Below, piece by piece: positions 3 through 59,007 of a stretch of DNA of 64,000 bases. The position numbers were made by a program, and so were the translations under genes. This stretch comes from a virus. The notes under the pieces were generated by a model, which worked only from the letters and a program-made list of their open reading frames with translations, was not told the DNA's origin and searched no databases. The stretch is from the IMG/VR virus record IMGVR_UViG_3300030430_004473, positions 1 through 64,000 of that record. One strand, written 5' to 3'. Within the stretch, counting starts at the first letter, position 1. Each line of letters starts with the position of its first letter.

Positions 3-752
3 TTCTAACTTTTTGATCCAACTGTTGATGTATGCTTGACTATTTTCTTTTACATCTTCGCTATTTGCTCCGAGTTCTGCACAGATGAACATGGCCCCTA
101 ATTCTGCGATCAGCTCTTCATAACTGTATTGATGAGAGCCAAACTTATCGAAGTTTGCCACCCCATCACGATTCAATCTCGATTTAGCACCGGTCGAATG
201 AACGATCTCATGAGCTAAGACGCTCACAGCTGCTTCACTTGTTTTGAAGTTACTAGGGATTGATATAGTATCTGATAGAGGTCTATATGCTGGGGCACCA
301 GTAACTAACTGAGGAGCGTCTGAATGATTGAAGTAATCTAACAAAGAACCTTCAGCTTTAACGCCATCTTTGATTTCAAATTTAGCTTTAGCTTCTTCGC
401 TTAGTTCTACTTGTTCAATATTGAACACTGAATATATCTTTGTATTCATATACTTGATCTCTTCCGGATTTTCTTTACAGAATACCGGCTTGAAGAAGAT
501 GATACGTGTGGCCTTCTGTCCTTTCTTTACAAATGAGCCTGTTGCTTTCCAAGCTTTATAAGTACCAAAATAAGGTGAACCAAAGCCAGCAAACATCAAT
601 AACAACGTATTGACGCCAGTGTAAGCATTACCTGTTCCAATGGAACGTGGAAGGCCACCAGCTTGAAAGCTTGGTATCCACTTCTTATAAGTAGATAGGC
701 CGTTGATTACTGAAGTAGTTATTTGTTCTTGAATATCTGTAAGTTTTGACAT
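3..752 (-). CDS. ardC: ArdC-family anti-restriction / ssDNA-binding protein with zincin domain (3' end runs off window)
   Basis: Not in ORF track. Manual translation MSKLTDIQEQITTSVINGL..PRSIGTGNAYTGVN..TYKAW..VKKGQKA..YSVFNIEQ..HEIVHSTG..RLNR..YSYEELIAELGA matches ArdC motifs; RBS AAACGGAG. Confidence 0.85.
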   Translation of the reverse strand, partial: MSKLTDIQEQITTSVINGLSTYKKWIPSFQAGGLPRSIGTGNAYTGVNTLLLMFAGFGSPYFGTYKAWKATGSFVKKGQKATRIIFFKPVFCKENPEEIKYMNTKIYSVFNIEQVELSEEAKAKFEIKDGVKAEGSLLDYFNHSDAPQLVTGAPAYRPLSDTISIPSNFKTSEAAVSVLAHEIVHSTGAKSRLNRDGVANFDKFGSHQYSYEELIAELGAMFICAELGANSEDVKENSQAYINSWIKKLE

Positions 753-1479: not shown

Positions 1480-3153
1480 ATGTTAGAACAGTATAAAGCG
1501 ACAGTATCAGAATTAAATAGTATAGCTCCAATGTTAGGACAGGTGTTGTGTCACCATAGGAATACGAGGGGCCAACCTATGAGTTTTTTGAATTATCCGA
1601 GTTTGCCACCTTTGTATAAGTTATTGCCTGAGGAGGGTGCGGATATATGTAAAGCTGTTCAGACTGGTTTGAGCGAGTTGATGATAAACTTGTGTTTTTA
1701 TCATGCTGGATCGTTGGGTAGGATAGTAGCTTATGTGTTGCCTACGTTTGGGGGTCGAGATCGATTTGTAGCTCAGCGAATCAATAGGATATTATTGCAA
1801 AGTGAGGGATATCGTTTGTTGTTACCGAATGGTAAAGAGACCGGTAATAACAAGTTGAAGCGTTTTGGAAGTGGTTCAATGTTGTTTTTGGGAAGTAATA
1901 CGCCCGTAGATTTTGTAGAATTTTCAGCTGATACGTTGATCATAGATGAATTGGATCAGTGTGATCCGGCAAATTTAGCTAAGGGTAAAGACAGATTACG
2001 AGCTTCATCAGATCCGAAGATGTATAGGTTAGGTAATCCTACGTTGCCAAATATAGGAATAAGTAAGTTATATGATGAGGGGTCACAACGTTTGTGGTAT
2101 ACGGTTTGTGATCATTGTGGAGAGTGGCAGACGTTAGACTGGTTTGAGAATGTAGTAAGAAAGACGGAAGATGGTGATTGGGTACCGAGAGATCCTAGAA
2201 TCAGTTTGAAAGTAGGAGAGTGGAAAGTATTTAAGGGAAATATAGATCCTGTTTGTAGGAAGTGTCATAGGCCGTTTATAAGACATAGACGAGGAGAGTG
2301 GGTAGCTAATTATGTTGGTCGAGAACGTGAGAGTTTTAGAATGACGAGATTAGACGTATTGAGTGATCCTTTGTTAGATTTATATAAAGAGTGGATGTTA
2401 GGTCAGGGAGATATGAATCGTTTATCAACGTTTTACACTTCTGTATTGGGTCAGGGTTTTGAACATAGTGGAGCTAGATTGACTGGTGAGCATTTGCATA
2501 ATGTTGCTACTGGTGATGAGTTAGATTATGGCGGTGGAGATTATTTAGCTGATCGTGTTGTATCTATGGGCGTTGATGTTGGTAGTGTATTGAATGTAAT
2601 GATATCAGTTGCAGAAGTAAGAGAAGAGACGAACGAACATGGAGAGTTGATAGATATAGCGGTTCGTAATACGATTTTTGTAGGAGCTTGTAAGCATTTT
2701 GAAGAGTTACAAGATATGATTTTGCGTTATCGTGTTGATTGTGTGGTGATTGACAGTATGCCGGAGACAAGGAAGTGTCAGGAGCTTCGAGATTGGGCTA
2801 TGGAAGAAACGGAATGTTTTGTTTGGTTGTGTCGTTTTCATCCAAATGCAAAGGTTAGTCATAGTGAATATGGCAGGAAGTTGAATTGGCGAGATCGAAC
2901 GGTTACAGTAGATAGGACACAGATAATAGATTTTACTTTTGATGAGATAGTGAATGGGAATCGTATATTTCCGAGTGATGTATTTACTGTATTGGGATTT
3001 GTGGATCAAATGCGGGCACCGGTTAGGGTTGTAGATACGGAAAAGAGTCGAATCATCTGGACCGAAAATGGAGCAGCTGATCACTATCGTTTTGCAGATG
3101 TATATAATAGAATAGCTTTTGATTTATCAGAAATGAATGGATCGTTTGGATAA
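1480..3153 (+). CDS. terL: terminase large subunit, lambda GpA-like
   Basis: GpA-type Walker A KAVQTGLSE, Walker B LIIDELD, CxxC pairs, nuclease GVDVG and C-terminal DH; upstream of portal. Confidence 0.9.
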   Translation: MLEQYKATVSELNSIAPMLGQVLCHHRNTRGQPMSFLNYPSLPPLYKLLPEEGADICKAVQTGLSELMINLCFYHAGSLGRIVAYVLPTFGGRDRFVAQRINRILLQSEGYRLLLPNGKETGNNKLKRFGSGSMLFLGSNTPVDFVEFSADTLIIDELDQCDPANLAKGKDRLRASSDPKMYRLGNPTLPNIGISKLYDEGSQRLWYTVCDHCGEWQTLDWFENVVRKTEDGDWVPRDPRISLKVGEWKVFKGNIDPVCRKCHRPFIRHRRGEWVANYVGRERESFRMTRLDVLSDPLLDLYKEWMLGQGDMNRLSTFYTSVLGQGFEHSGARLTGEHLHNVATGDELDYGGGDYLADRVVSMGVDVGSVLNVMISVAEVREETNEHGELIDIAVRNTIFVGACKHFEELQDMILRYRVDCVVIDSMPETRKCQELRDWAMEETECFVWLCRFHPNAKVSHSEYGRKLNWRDRTVTVDRTQIIDFTFDEIVNGNRIFPSDVFTVLGFVDQMRAPVRVVDTEKSRIIWTENGAADHYRFADVYNRIAFDLSEMNGSFG

Positions 3154-12651: not shown

Positions 12652-12681
12652 AATAAACTCCGTTGTTGTTAGTCATAATTT

Positions 12682-12710
12682 ATTCTAACACAAAACGTAT
12701 TACTATACAA
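12682..12710 (-). promoter_or_regulatory. sigma70-type promoter for HNH gene
   Basis: TTGTAT-17-TAGAAT with extended TG; spacer AGTAATACGTTTTGTG shared with 50201-50216. Confidence 0.65.
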
Positions 12711-15514: not shown

Positions 15515-15556
15515 GATTTTTCTCCGTTGTTGAATGTTAGAATGTCTAGTAATAAT

Positions 15557-20470: not shown

Positions 20471-20500
20471 GATTACCTCCGTTGTTTGAATCATATAATT

Positions 20501-38631: not shown

Positions 38632-38690
38632 CTACACAAATAATATATATTGTGTTATAATAATTAGGTATTTCAACAACGGAGAAAATT

Positions 38691-50247: not shown

Positions 50248-50559
50248 ATGATTTATATAATCGTCACGACAGACATGCTTGATATGAACATGTATGTCAC
50301 TTGTTACTCTACCAAAAAAGAGTTTGAAATACATAAAGCTCTAGCTGAAGAGCTTGAACGCAAAGATCAGCTATATGAAGGTGGTAATGGTTCAATAAGA
50401 CATGATTTTCACGAAGTACCTTTGCTAGGTAAGTCTCTAAAAAAGATTGCCCTTTCTATAACAAAAGCTTGTCATGGTGATACGATCAGTGACGTTATTG
50501 ATCAGATTGATGAACTAGATACAGAGGAAAATAACAACAACGGAGAAGATAATGACTAG
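50248..50559 (+). CDS. hypothetical protein
   Basis: ACAACGGAGG RBS. Confidence 0.65.
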   Translation: MIYIIVTTDMLDMNMYVTCYSTKKEFEIHKALAEELERKDQLYEGGNGSIRHDFHEVPLLGKSLKKIALSITKACHGDTISDVIDQIDELDTEENNNNGEDND

Positions 50560-54839: not shown

Positions 54840-55520
54840 ATGTCTACAGACGAATCAAGTCAGAAAAGCAGACATCTACAATTAAATCTTTGCAAGATAT
54901 TGAACTTAGAAGAAGAAGAAGATTATAAAAAGATAAAGACAGATAATCTTACTCAGATAGGTTCGTCAGCTCATGCAGATAACGAAAGAGAAAAAAATGA
55001 CTTCTATGCTACGCCACAATCAGCTGTAGTTAATTTCTTAAATTGTTATCTATACAGAGATAAAGAAGTGTTAGATAAAAATCTATGGGAATGTTCCTGT
55101 GGGGATGGTGCTATATCGAAGATTTTGGAAAACAACGGATATAATGTTTTTTCATCAGATTTGATAGATAGAGGATATGGAGAACAAAGCGATTTTATGA
55201 CTTATCAAGAAAATGTTGGAGGTGGCGACATAATTACAAACCCACCTTTCAAATTGATTCTTCCTTTCTTAGAACACGCAATCAAATTATTAGAAAATGG
55301 AAATAAGTTAATATTCTTAATGCGTCTACTTTGTTTAGAAGGAAAGCAAAGAAACGAATTTTTTAAGAAACATCCAATTAAATATGTCTATATTCATACA
55401 ACGAGAATAGCTTGTACTTTGCCTGATGTTCAAACCAAACCAGTTACAGCGATAGCTTATGCTTGGTATGTATGGGAAAAAGGCTATGAGGGTGAAACTG
55501 TTATTCGTTGGTTGCCTTAG
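54840..55520 (+). CDS. DNA N6-adenine methyltransferase
   Basis: DFYATP, WECSCGDG, IITNPPF, YAWYVW. Confidence 0.85.
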   Translation: MSTDESSQKSRHLQLNLCKILNLEEEEDYKKIKTDNLTQIGSSAHADNEREKNDFYATPQSAVVNFLNCYLYRDKEVLDKNLWECSCGDGAISKILENNGYNVFSSDLIDRGYGEQSDFMTYQENVGGGDIITNPPFKLILPFLEHAIKLLENGNKLIFLMRLLCLEGKQRNEFFKKHPIKYVYIHTTRIACTLPDVQTKPVTAIAYAWYVWEKGYEGETVIRWLP

Positions 55521-55532
55521 AGGAATAGAACA

Positions 55533-56138
55533 ATGATACAATTACACAACAAAGATTGTCTGGAAGCTATGAAGTCAATGAAAACAGATCAATTTGATCT
55601 AGCTATTGTAGATCCGCCTTACGGAATGCTCGAGGCCGGTATGCAAATGGGTGGAAAAAAAGGATCTTCTTTTCAACGTAAAGAAGTAAACAAATGGGAT
55701 AAAAAGCCACCGAAAGAATATTTTGATGAACTGTTTCGAGTATCAAAGAATCAGATTATCTGGGGTGGTAACTACTTCGGTCTACCACCTACGAGAGAAT
55801 GTATTTGTTGGGATAAAAAGAATTGTATGCCGTCTTTTTCACGTTGGGAAATGGCATGGACCAGCTTCAAAGGTGTGATGAAAATGTATGAACATATAAG
55901 TCAAAATCCAAATAGAATACATCCAACACAAAAGCCGGTAGCTCTATATATGTGGCTACTTAATACTTATGCAAAGCAGGGAGATAAGATCCTAGATACG
56001 CATATCGGATCTGGCAGTATTGCAATAGCTTGCCATGAGCTGAAGTATGATCTTGAAGGTTATGAAATAAATAAAAAATACTATCAGAAAACAATGTATA
56101 GACTCAAACAACATCAAAGACAATTGAAATTATTTTAA
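55533..56138 (+). CDS. DNA N4/N6 methyltransferase (beta class)
   Basis: DPPY, HPTQKP, LDTHIGSGS. Confidence 0.9.
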   Translation: MIQLHNKDCLEAMKSMKTDQFDLAIVDPPYGMLEAGMQMGGKKGSSFQRKEVNKWDKKPPKEYFDELFRVSKNQIIWGGNYFGLPPTRECICWDKKNCMPSFSRWEMAWTSFKGVMKMYEHISQNPNRIHPTQKPVALYMWLLNTYAKQGDKILDTHIGSGSIAIACHELKYDLEGYEINKKYYQKTMYRLKQHQRQLKLF

Positions 56139-56152
56139 CGGAAATAACGAAC

Positions 56153-56761
56153 ATGATAAACATATACAATGAAGATTGTTTACAAGCTATGAAAAACATG
56201 AATGATAATAGTTTTGATCTAGCTATCGTTGATCCTCCGTTTGGAATTGGAAACTTTGTTCAAACTAGCGGGGCCAAACGTGGATCAAAAGTTGATTGGA
56301 ATGATAACATTCCGACAGAAGAATATTTTTCAGAACTGAAAAGAGTATCAAAGAATAGAATCATATTTGGAGCAAATTATTTTAATTGCTTTGAAGAAAA
56401 ATATGGAGCTATTATTTGGGTAAAAAATCAACCCATGCCGGATTTTTCAAAGGCCGTGATTGCTTCATGCACTTTTCACAAAAAGATTGAAATATATGAA
56501 CAAACATGGACTAACTTTGTAGCTAAAGGAAGAAGTACAAAACATCCTTGTGAAATGCCTGTTGGAATATACAAATGGATTTTGCGTAACTATGCAAAGC
56601 AAGGAGATAAAATATTAGATACTCACTTAGGCTCTGGTTCAATCGCAATAGCTTGTGATGATATGGGCTATTCGTTGGATGGGTACGAACTAGATACAGG
56701 ATATTATGAAGAAGCTTGTAAACGATTGAAACAACATCAAAGACAATTAAAGCTCTTTTAA
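56153..56761 (+). CDS. DNA N4/N6 methyltransferase (beta class), paralogue
   Basis: DPPF, HPCEMP, LDTHLGSGS. Confidence 0.9.
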   Translation: MINIYNEDCLQAMKNMNDNSFDLAIVDPPFGIGNFVQTSGAKRGSKVDWNDNIPTEEYFSELKRVSKNRIIFGANYFNCFEEKYGAIIWVKNQPMPDFSKAVIASCTFHKKIEIYEQTWTNFVAKGRSTKHPCEMPVGIYKWILRNYAKQGDKILDTHLGSGSIAIACDDMGYSLDGYELDTGYYEEACKRLKQHQRQLKLF

Positions 56762-56762
56762 T

Positions 56763-56791
56763 TTGCATACTAAATCATTTTGTGTAATACT
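56763..56791 (+). promoter_or_regulatory. promoter for candidate sRNA
   Basis: TTGCAT-17-(TGT)AATACT; spacer ATCATTTTGTGT identical to promoter at 49841. Confidence 0.55.
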
Positions 56792-56797
56792 TAAATT

Positions 56798-56906
56798 GTT
56801 CGTTGACAAAAACAGCCAAGCAATTTTTCTTCTCCGTTGTTAAAGTTTTAAGGAAATTTGCTTTTGAAAGGGTGACTCATTTCGTTGGTTGCCCTTTCTT
56901 CTTTTT
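56798..56906 (+). ncRNA. candidate trans-acting anti-RBS small RNA
   Basis: Intergenic; 14-bp stem 56818-31/56850-63 with loop CUCCGUUGUUAAAGUUUU; ends in terminator; loop antisense to AACAACGGAG RBS class. Confidence 0.6.
56866..56906 (+). terminator. rho-independent terminator
   Basis: GAAAGGGTGAC/GTTGCCCTTTC stem (two G.U pairs, so + strand specific) followed by TTCTTTTT. Confidence 0.8.
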
Positions 56907-56972
56907 GTCAGAAAGTGACCGACAAAGATAACACTCTTCATGTTATGAATAATTAACAAGGAGAATAGAACA

Positions 56973-58274
56973 ATGAACATAACAGAATATCGAACTGTAA
57001 TGAATAGATATGAAGATAGCGAACGAATCAAACAGATAGGCCCAGCTTGGACTTTTACAAATAGCGAATTCGTTGAGCTAGGTTGTAAAAGAAAATGGTC
57101 GTATGGTTATTTGATGAATATAGAAACAACAGAAAAAGGAGACGCTCTTTTATATGGGATCGTTTGGCATGTAGTAATGGAACATGCATTATTAAGAATG
57201 AAGAATACAGATACATGTATAACCAAAGAAGAAGCTCTGGAACTGATTGAAATCGTAGGAAGAAAGTCTTTTGAAGAAGAACGTGAAGCAATACAAGTAA
57301 TCGAAGAAGCTAAAGAAGAATGGATAGAAAACTGTTTGGATAGAATGAAAAGAGCTATCGTGGGTTGGTGCGATCATTGGGCTATACTTCATAAAGAATA
57401 CGAAATCATAGCAATAGAGCAAACTCTAGCCAGGCCTATACTTCATCCTCAGACCGGTGAAATCTATAGTCCAAAGACATATATAATAGAAGAAGATGAT
57501 TGTTTATATCCAGCTGGTATCAACAAAGAACGATCCAATTTGATTGATGTATGTATACCATACTGGAAAGTAGGAAAAGCTGACGCTATACTTCTCAAAC
57601 GTGGAACAAAATCGCTTTATATACTAGATCATAAGACAACATCACAACCTACTTCATACGAACGAAAGTTTTTATTTGATATGCAGTTATCTGGCTACTG
57701 TTCTCTACTTGATTACGAAATCAAACATGGAGATATGACGTATTTATCAAAATATGAAGTCAAAGGTGTCATTTGGGATCTATGTCATAGCAAAGTGCCA
57801 AAACCACCGGAACCGTTAAAGTCCGGCAAACTATCAACAGCTAAGGCCAAACTTGTTCCGAGTTGGATCTATGAAGAATCTATTATCAAATATGAATTAG
57901 ATCGAAGTGATTATGAAGAACATTTGGAAATGCTAAAGACCAAAGCAGATCCGAACTACTTCTGTTTTTTGATTACATCAATTAATGAAAATGACATGAC
58001 ACGATCTGTATTAGAAGATTATAGTACAGCTTGCTCTATGCATGAACTGAAAACAAAACTTATCAATGCTGATAATATGACATTCCAATATACAGCTTCT
58101 AGGTATCCTATATGTCAACAATATCTCAGCTGTAAATATAGCTATTTATGTCAACCGAATGTAGCAATCGAAGATATAAATGAAACAATAAAGCACAAAA
58201 TATATTGGAAAAAGATTGAAAATAATACAGATTATGATATAATTAACTCAGACCAATTAGGTCTACCTTTCTAA
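56973..58274 (+). CDS. PD-(D/E)XK exonuclease (RecB/Cas4-like)
   Basis: CKRKW, GIVWH, GKADAI..ILDHKT, QLSGY, C-terminal Cys cluster. Confidence 0.85.
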   Translation: MNITEYRTVMNRYEDSERIKQIGPAWTFTNSEFVELGCKRKWSYGYLMNIETTEKGDALLYGIVWHVVMEHALLRMKNTDTCITKEEALELIEIVGRKSFEEEREAIQVIEEAKEEWIENCLDRMKRAIVGWCDHWAILHKEYEIIAIEQTLARPILHPQTGEIYSPKTYIIEEDDCLYPAGINKERSNLIDVCIPYWKVGKADAILLKRGTKSLYILDHKTTSQPTSYERKFLFDMQLSGYCSLLDYEIKHGDMTYLSKYEVKGVIWDLCHSKVPKPPEPLKSGKLSTAKAKLVPSWIYEESIIKYELDRSDYEEHLEMLKTKADPNYFCFLITSINENDMTRSVLEDYSTACSMHELKTKLINADNMTFQYTASRYPICQQYLSCKYSYLCQPNVAIEDINETIKHKIYWKKIENNTDYDIINSDQLGLPF

Positions 58275-58290
58275 TTCAACGGAGAAAAAT

Positions 58291-59007
58291 ATGTCTTTTA
58301 AGATAGAAAAAGCTTCCAAAGCTTCAAGTAATGCACCGATCAAGGCTTTGATATACGGTGATTCTGGTGCAGGAAAAACAACCCTAGCAGTTACAGGGCC
58401 TGGACCGGTTCTAGTACTATTAACCGAACGTCAAGCGATTACATCAATCAACGCCTCCAATCCTGAGGCTGATATTATTTATGTCAATACAGCTCAAGAT
58501 GTAAGAAACGTGATAGGAGCTTTGCGAAATGGTGATAAATCACTAGCAAAATATAAAACATTAGTAGTCGATTCTTTGACAGAAACACAACGATTAATTC
58601 AAGACGATATACTGAAAAAGGCTAGAAGAGATAGTATGCAATTGCAAGATTACGGAAAACTCGCAGACGCAACGAAAGGACTCATCAGAACACTGAGAGA
58701 TCTACCTATCAACGTCATTTGTACCGCTCTTATGGAACACGATAACGAAGAAGCTACTGGAAAACGTCATTATAGTCCTATCTTTATCGGTAAGAAAACC
58801 GGTCGTGAAATCGCTCAATGGTTCACGATAATAGGTTACTTGTATCGTAGGGATGTAAAAGAAGAAAACGAACGTGTTTCTCAAAGATACGTTATGTTTG
58901 ATGGCCCTTCTACAGTACTTTGCAAAATCGCAAATCCGTTAGAAGGTATCATTAAAGATCCAAAAATGGATAATATCATTCAATCAATTCAACAATACAA
59001 AGGATAA
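58291..59007 (+). CDS. Sak4-like AAA ATPase (single-strand annealing)
   Basis: IYGDSGAGKT, TLVVDSLT, QDYG; between exonuclease and SSB. Confidence 0.8.
   Translation: MSFKIEKASKASSNAPIKALIYGDSGAGKTTLAVTGPGPVLVLLTERQAITSINASNPEADIIYVNTAQDVRNVIGALRNGDKSLAKYKTLVVDSLTETQRLIQDDILKKARRDSMQLQDYGKLADATKGLIRTLRDLPINVICTALMEHDNEEATGKRHYSPIFIGKKTGREIAQWFTIIGYLYRRDVKEENERVSQRYVMFDGPSTVLCKIANPLEGIIKDPKMDNIIQSIQQYKG

Follow-up and report, generated by a model that had tools for sequence, protein, structure and literature searches.

A candidate small RNA gene of an uncultured marine phage with an invariant loop complementary to a class of phage ribosome-binding sites

The timed shut-off of early genes has been worked out well for a small number of model phages only; there, proteins carry it out, such as RegB, RegA and Alc of T4 and similar factors. 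Known phage small RNAs (sRNAs) mostly act on a single operon, for example, c4, P4 CI, OOP, and sar, or on host genes. In the Firmicutes, RsaE/RoxS and the hairpins of RNAIII present an unpaired C/U-rich loop that pairs with the Shine-Dalgarno (SD) regions of many mRNAs, and these RNAs possess a Rho-independent terminator. Here we describe a candidate sRNA gene located in the gap at positions 56762-56972 (+ strand) of a 64,000-nucleotide (nt) stretch of viral DNA, referred to below as the window, which is the first 64 kb of the 75,827-bp IMG/VR virus record IMGVR_UViG_3300030430_004473 (35.6% GC). The source is an uncultured marine phage. The gap lies between a DNA methylase gene and a nuclease gene, and the predicted RNA carries in a hairpin loop a sequence complementary to the ribosome-binding sites (RBSs) of numerous genes of the same phage.

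In mechanism, the closest described systems appear to be the c4 antisense RNA of phages P1 and P7 and the cuckoo RNAs of the Alphaproteobacteria. The c4 RNA (Rfam RF01695) is a phage small RNA that depends on its fold, and complements borne in its loops pair around the ant RBS and block translation; it is excised from the same transcript as its target, and it controls one operon (icd-ant) and immunity in a temperate phage (PMC12197685). In contrast, the gene described here is a stand-alone promoter-to-terminator unit whose single seed has about 20 predicted targets scattered over the genome, and it has no sequence or Rfam similarity to c4. The cuckoo RNAs (CcsR/alpha-r14) have free stems and show the same pyrimidine-rich anti-SD-like motif, CCUCCUCCC, in every loop (PMC4615179). 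They resemble the family described below in combining variable stems with an invariant anti-SD-like loop, and one distant member of that family (locus L005) even has two copies of the seed. They differ in being chromosomal bacterial sRNAs of two to four hairpins, with another motif, host targets, and no phage-specific RBS class. RsaE/RoxS and RNAIII are similar in their C/U-rich unpaired anti-SD loop and Rho-independent terminator, but are bacterial and use another motif. Because the seed in the phage RNA extends 6 nt upstream of the GGAG, class specificity rather than general SD binding would be expected.

In logic, the nearest system is that of T4 RegB/RegA, in which many early mRNAs are shut down jointly through a feature of the translation-initiation region. 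RegB is an endoribonuclease that cuts the GGAG in early SD sequences and inactivates early mRNAs (PMC3014915). The T4 agents are, however, proteins, and recognition is achieved by nuclease or protein binding and not by base pairing. The nut sites (boxA/boxB) of lambda and put of HK022 provide a further comparison, since they consist of a promoter-proximal hairpin with a conserved loop and a covarying stem, upstream of a terminator. The phage unit has the same kind of hairpin 5' of a terminator, but it lacks a conserved boxA, is mobile relative to the downstream genes, has a loop complementary to an RBS, and in some relatives is followed by a separate downstream promoter. In the literature that we searched, neither this sRNA nor, for any lytic phage, an anti-RBS sRNA with regulon-wide reach is described.

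The candidate gene begins with a sigma70-type promoter at 56763..56791 (+), composed of TTGCAT (56763-68), a 17-nt spacer, TG (56783-84), and AATACT (56786-91), with a predicted transcription start near 56798. This promoter is homologous to a strong phage promoter at 49841, with which it has the spacer ATCATTTTGTGT in common, and it is identical in a relative of about 93% identity; its sequence clearly marks it as one of the promoters of the type that this phage uses. The main hairpin (56818..56863, +) was folded by RNAfold into an outer helix of 6 bp, a U/U internal loop, an inner helix of 7 bp, and an 18-nt apical loop. Its arms, AAGCAATTTTTCTT (56818-31) and AAGGAAATTTGCTT (56850-63), form 13 pairs, including one U.G wobble, with one U.U mismatch. 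The proposed seed is the 10-mer CUCCGUUGUU (56832..56841, +) at the start of the 18-nt loop. In the predicted full-length RNAs (96-137 nt), its mean unpaired probability is 0.84 for the window and 0.45-0.87 for the relatives. A Rho-independent terminator follows at 56866..56906 (+), consisting of a 13-bp bulged hairpin (56866-56898) that contains U.G pairs, and then UUCUUUUU. A simple terminator scan missed this hairpin because of the bulge; the terminator is predicted by RNAfold.

The fold of 56790-56910 reaches -32.7 kcal/mol on the + strand (z -3.8), with none of 200 shuffles as good, and a weaker -25.4 kcal/mol (z -2.7) on the - strand. A preliminary description of this DNA had proposed the promoter, stem, and terminator, all of which are present where it placed them, and had regarded the terminator as specific to the + strand, which agrees with the U.G pairs and the weaker - strand fold. 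Taken together, these parts would constitute a self-contained sRNA gene of about 105 nt on the + strand, extending from the promoter (56763-91) to the terminator (56866-906). No match to the element was found in Rfam, including C4 (RF01695), with cmscan of 55000-58500 at E values up to 10 and of relative loci L071-L075 at E values up to 5. Nearby, only PK-repZ was matched, inconsistently and below threshold (25.6 bits, compared with a threshold of 44), by the minus strand of L073.

Relatives were found by alignment of homologs of the downstream nuclease, with a covariance model made from the window, and by scanning for the seed, and 5-9 kb of each relative was read. Homologous units are present in eight other contigs that represent six further sequence versions, giving seven versions in total. 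The closest relative is a contig of about 93% nucleotide identity (L003/L065, also L070), in which the same gap exhibits six differences in 211 nt. Five of the six fall within the 28 stem positions and compensate each other, and the loop is untouched: TT>CC in the 5' arm (56827-28), together with deletion of an A and AA>GG in the 3' arm (56850, 56854-55), preserve the helix and strengthen it. In L071, L072, L074, and L075, the unit is directly 5' of the nuclease gene, whose products are 43-52% identical in amino acid sequence to that of the window, and it consists of a sigma70 promoter, a wholly different stem, the same loop start CUCCGUUGUU, and a strong intrinsic terminator. A copy matched by the covariance model in L073 is about 1 kb upstream of the nuclease gene (45% identical nuclease). 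The version in L005 (39% identical nuclease) is distant, lies on the other strand at about 100-270 (minus) behind a consensus promoter, and has two seeds, UUCCGUUGUU in the main loop and CUCCGUUGUU in a small second hairpin; no partner is visible for UUCCGUUGUU in the 6 kb available. Across L071-L075 and L005, the promoters are of the TTGACA-16-TGtTATACT-like type and mostly stronger than that of the window, being near-consensus in L074 and L075. The terminators have GC-rich stems of 9-12 bp followed by U8-U9, at the same place on the + strand in every relative. A promoter-like site and a terminator on the + strand thus delimit a short non-coding unit, as is typical of trans-acting sRNAs, in 7/7 sequence versions.

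The loop sequence CUCCGUUGUU is invariant in all seven versions, and the flanking RNA is unalignable. The covariance models recovered the relatives and the L073 copy, but placed several stems out of register and included non-members, and hairpin alignments made with MAFFT were likewise out of register. Pairs were therefore counted from constrained folds, bearing in mind that seven versions are too few for a formal covariation statistic. The constrained folds exhibit a common architecture, with an outer helix of 5-8 bp, an internal loop of 1-2 nt, an inner helix of 3-7 bp, and an apical loop of 18-22 nt. At every position of the outer helix, two to four different Watson-Crick pair types are found across the family. 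When arms were swapped between members, the pairing energies were mostly 0 to -6 kcal/mol, compared with -7.9 to -15.6 kcal/mol for cognate arms, and for each 5' arm the 3' arm of the same member was the strongest partner or close to it. The seven versions therefore display a conserved single-stranded seed within a structure kept by compensatory changes. The U.G wobbles of four members are valid on the + strand only, as they become A.C mismatches on the minus strand, and across the family none of the six frames contains a conserved open reading frame (ORF).

We consider it highly probable, from comparison of these sequences, that the gap contains a conserved non-coding RNA gene on the + strand, in line with the + strand sRNA of the preliminary description. 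Pattern scans of viral contigs with a 16-mer, a 15-mer, and a degenerate 18-mer around the seed (35, 59, and 38 loci, respectively) revealed no member beyond the known close relative. In L007, within 2400-2480 (+), CUCCGUUGU directly precedes the terminator that closes a gene at its 3' end and is followed by three genes with CAACGGAG sites, which may possibly be a version of the sRNA located in a 3' untranslated region (UTR).

The loop is the only conserved sequence in the RNA, and we reasoned that function must therefore run through it. Counting both strands, the 75.8-kb genome contains nine exact copies of the complement of the seed, AACAACGGAG. One occurrence is the sRNA gene itself, and the other eight are all in translation-initiation regions (8/8), which is beyond chance. 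A rough gene call of the whole genome identified about 21-24 gene starts with (C)AACGGAG at SD spacing. The 14-mer AACAACGGAGAAGA, which is found exactly at 50536-49 and is the reverse complement of 56828-41, has 11 matches with two or fewer mismatches, compared with 0.71 expected, and none of 100 shuffles reached 11. When the 18-nt loop alone was paired with initiation regions using RNAduplex, 19 of the 90 regions reached -14 kcal/mol or better, 16 of them belonging to the ACGGAG class; with the same cut-off, 300 shuffled loops gave a mean of 0.57 regions and a maximum of 6. The ACGGAG class has a median pairing energy of -15.3 kcal/mol, compared with -7.5 kcal/mol for the others (p = 5e-11), and random coding windows seldom reach -12 kcal/mol. 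The loop shows selective complementarity to the ACGGAG-class RBS, as first suggested.

The best predicted target is the RBS of gene 50552 (50536..50549, +), where 14 nt are complementary to 56828-41 and the predicted pairing is -16.1 kcal/mol with the loop alone or -23.1 kcal/mol with flanking stem bases. The 14-nt match had been reported previously and is exact, but only the 10-mer CUCCGUUGUU within it is conserved in the relatives. The extra 4 nt (UCUU) are part of the stem; they have changed in the closest relative, and they do not follow its target RBS; covariation of these stem bases with the RBS of 50552 was considered and rejected, as it is not seen in the close relative. The 12-nt matches at genes 38691 and 15514 and the 10-nt match at gene 12651 were also correctly described. 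The corresponding predicted target sites are AACAACGGAGAA at 38675..38686 (+), behind a sigma70 promoter; AACAACGGAGAA at 15520..15531 (-), behind a consensus promoter; and AACAACGGAG at 12658..12667 (-), the RBS of an HNH endonuclease gene. A further predicted target is the RBS of gene 20470 (AACAACGGAG, 20477..20486, -), which is also behind a consensus promoter.

Genes of the ACGGAG class are frequently promoter-proximal: a good sigma70-type promoter is found within 90 nt of 11 of the 21 class members and of 5 of the 69 other genes (Fisher p = 2e-5). Their leaders are short, about 15-25 nt. The class includes the HNH endonuclease, an AAA_24 gene, many small ORFs without a family, and a gene at the left end of the record (3-800, -) that encodes an ArdC-like anti-restriction protein with ArdcN and zincin-like MPTase-PolyVal domains and has an ACGGAG RBS behind a consensus promoter. 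Judging by the type of promoter and by what they encode, these are probably early genes, consistent with the early-type target class originally envisaged. Each of the relative loci with the sRNA also has ACGGAG or ACGGGG sites at gene starts, many of them close to a promoter, and the ACGGGG variants in L074 and L075 can still pair with the seed via G.U. The AAA_24 gene that follows the nuclease was evaluated as a single conserved target and rejected, the ACGGAG site being absent in L074. Beyond the window, at 69140-69185 of the genome, a GC-rich terminator-like hairpin, GGGGCCACGGCCCC, is followed directly by UAUUACAACGGAG and a gene start, so that the class RBS is at the foot of a terminator and not behind a promoter.

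Strong sigma70-type promoters of the phage, for example, those at 12710(-), 15584(-), 20529(-), 50194, and 66892 (genome coordinates), have in common a spacer element, AATAC(G/A)N4-6(T)G, located 6-8 nt before the -10 box. The element is also present in the sRNA promoters of L071, L072, and L074; it could extend the promoters of the early class or be the site of a regulator. Since the AATAC(A/G) spacer element is thus common to early promoters and several sRNA promoters, the RNA is probably made together with its targets.

On balance, we lean towards the sRNA being an anti-RBS repressor of the phage's own gene class. The hairpin would serve to display the invariant 10-mer in single-stranded form in its apical loop, and the loop would pair with the SD GGAG and the six bases upstream of it in the mRNAs of about 20 dispersed phage genes, most of which are the first gene behind a sigma70-type promoter with a very short leader. 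Such pairing would hide the site at which the 30S subunit binds, and it might also leave the mRNA open to attack by RNases. A block to 30S binding is expected because the duplex covers the GGAG and the six upstream bases, as in established anti-SD sRNA mechanisms. The outcome would be a collective lowering of translation across the target gene class, and genes with AGGAG-type sites, including most virion genes, would pair poorly and escape.

A number of observations weigh against this interpretation. The window promoter is weak by consensus, since apart from the TG only 7 of 12 positions agree with that of sigma70. No transcript was observed; no RNA sequencing run is listed with the phage, and the one metatranscriptome examined (X5) did not contain the element. 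The 75.8-kb phage genome encodes no RNA chaperone, with no gene found for CsrA (PF02599, E up to 1), Hfq, or ProQ. Covariation between loop and RBS in related phages, which the preliminary description had anticipated, was not seen: both are invariant, so the evidence amounts to co-conservation only. The RBS motif is also not confined to this phage. The exact 16-mer CTTTAACAACGGAGAA is carried by at least nine unrelated viral contigs of IMG/VR (loci L034, L036, L039, L041, L046, L048, L062, L064, and L067), where it lies 5-9 nt ahead of ATG gene starts, and on this evidence the extended RBS is a widely used "good" ribosome site and not a tag private to the phage, contrary to the idea of a private RBS barcode. 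As RBSs of the AACAACGGAGAA type are present in unrelated viral contigs, the intended targets could be host or competitor mRNAs. Lastly, the promoter scan of the window found no obvious promoter for the nuclease gene at 56973 between the sRNA terminator and the gene start, which leaves room for a leader or attenuator role.

Timing is a related difficulty. The similarity of the sRNA promoters to early promoters makes a simple late off-switch, as initially proposed, uncertain; late timing is not implied, and a pulse limiter or a threshold is as likely. Early-type promoters would rather suggest a self-limiting pulse or a threshold. Regulation of the CsrA/RsmA type at ANGGA sites does not account for the RNA, as the + strand transcript would bear the complement of the motif and not GGA.

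A broader proposal, which we put forward only tentatively, is that one sRNA acts as a global post-transcriptional governor of the early program in a virulent-type marine phage lineage. All early-class mRNAs would share the address AACAACGGAG at the RBS, a few bases from the 5' end, and a single early-transcribed, stable sRNA with the mirror-image loop would titrate them. Early protein synthesis would then be a self-limiting pulse achieved without a protein regulator, an RNA counterpart of T4 RegB/RegA. The same RNA could also silence superinfecting relatives, because the address is common to related phages. If true, this would represent a regulon-scale RNA switch of about 20 dispersed genes within a lytic-type phage genome. 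The pair of seed and RBS predicts which unannotated ORFs share one expression class, and the system is small enough to be tested in a heterologous host. An invariant loop with freely covarying stems is also a simple criterion by which metagenomic phages can be searched for similar RNAs.

The alternative that best survives, although we consider it unlikely, is that the element is a leader acting in cis, in which the promoter serves the downstream nuclease and replication genes, the hairpin is a read-through element similar to nut/boxB or put, and the short RNA is a terminated by-product. In lambdoid nut sites, the order is promoter, hairpin with conserved loop and covarying stem, terminator, and gene. 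The same order of parts is found here, with a + strand gene 3' of the terminator in all members, and in the window the stretch from the terminator to the start of the nuclease gene lacks a good promoter. However, L071 and L072 have a separate promoter (TTGACT-18-TATGAT type) between terminator and nuclease, and in L073 and L005 the unit is located elsewhere, apart from the nuclease gene. The terminators of the relatives are strong. A boxA-like GCTCTTT upstream of the unit is coding sequence (QLKLF-stop) and is not conserved, and the conserved boxA with a boxB hairpin fixed upstream of an operon that defines lambdoid nut-type sites is not found. A leader in cis also provides no account of the exact complementarity between the invariant loop and the RBS 10-mer that is commonest in the phage. 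One RNA could nevertheless have both roles.

It is improbable, too, that the sRNA acts in trans mainly on host mRNAs, or on early mRNAs of competitor phages with the same AACAACGGAG-type site, as a means of taking over the host or excluding superinfecting phages. In P1/P7 (c4; PMC12197685) and in P4, the immunity factor is a small RNA, which provides a precedent for such a role. It would also be compatible with the occurrence of CTTTAACAACGGAGAA at gene starts of the unrelated viral contigs and with an sRNA promoter of the early type used by host RNA polymerase. Nevertheless, pairing with the roughly 20 matching sites of the phage's own genome would be unavoidable, so that self-regulation would happen in any case.

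A role of the structured RNA through a protein or through replication is very unlikely. The hairpin would then be a protein site or decoy, or the RNA would be a primer or activator transcript of an origin in the replication module. Hairpins with conserved loops are typical of protein recognition elements, and the unit lies between DNA-modification and recombination/replication genes. However, a discrete promoter-to-terminator unit with a strong terminator is atypical of primer transcripts, and no conserved iterons or AT-rich unwinding element are present. Binding of a protein to CUCCGUUGUU would not extend to the complementary sequence, and the RBS match would then be a coincidence at the ~1e-2 level or lower; the absence of CsrA, Hfq, and ProQ genes from the phage also argues against a protein partner of these kinds.

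Finally, it is scarcely credible that the seed has no function, the hairpin and terminator merely stabilizing the methylase operon transcript and the loop being a relic of an inverted gene start: the minus-strand loop does read as a normal RBS with a TTG 8 nt later, and L073 has a real minus-strand gene start with the same RBS upstream of its nuclease gene, but L073 also has the hairpin unit 0.8 kb from that gene start, the minus-strand start codon is absent in L072, L073, and L075 with no frame conserved, there is no minus-strand promoter, the wobbles turn into A.C mismatches on the minus strand, and a relic would not remain invariant amid complete turnover of the stem or keep its own conserved promoter. 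A relic minus-strand gene start is thus essentially excluded, and with it the minus-strand mini-ORF (TTG 56823) that had been named as the alternative to an sRNA.

The phage has no close cultured counterpart. Searches of the INPHARED phages for near and distant DNA similarity gave no matches, TerL is at most 24% identical to that of any cultured phage, and no host or taxon could be assigned from TerL. DNA contigs from three sequencing runs contained only relatives of 95-97% identity. Upstream of the gap is an N6/N4 DNA methylase gene (56153..56761, +; Pfam PF01555). Its transcripts would likewise terminate at the sRNA terminator, and the hairpin would therefore be in their 3' UTR. A methylase with the identical QLKLF-stop end is 5' of the sRNA in L070, L071, L074, and L075.

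Downstream of the gap is a PD-(D/E)XK nuclease gene (56973..58274, +; Pfam PF12705), which served as the anchor for the search for relatives; no bacterial relative of the nuclease was found among genome contigs. Pairing in cis between the loop and the nuclease RBS (AACAAGGAGAA, 11 bp with one bulge in the window) was considered and rejected, as it is not conserved in the relatives. Within the 3' end of the nuclease gene (58216-58290) is a near-consensus promoter, TTGAAA-16-TG-TATAAT, followed by a small hairpin (58249-65) and then by the ACGGAG RBS of the AAA_24 gene. With this promoter of their own, the downstream replication genes would start independently, and the nuclease alone would therefore rely on read-through of the sRNA terminator.

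The upstream methylase gene is the second of two tandem paralogous N6/N4 DNA methylase genes (55533-56138 and 56153-56761), whose first 95 nt are 72% identical and whose 3' ends are near-identical. Relatives (L065 and DNA contigs of runs X1 and X2) have a single methylase gene, with a junction as though 56138-56759 had been skipped. Both methylase genes and the 5' part of the sRNA gene are flanked by a split direct repeat. Its first part, TTCGTTGGTTGCC, is found at 55504-16, at the end of gene 54840-55520, and at 56881-93, in the 3' half of the sRNA terminator. Its second part, GAATAGAACAATGA, is found at 55523-36 and 56963-76, comprising the RBS and start of the first methylase gene and of the nuclease gene, respectively. 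The close relative does not have the upstream copies of the repeat. The arrangement looks like a recombination scar left by insertion or duplication of a cassette.

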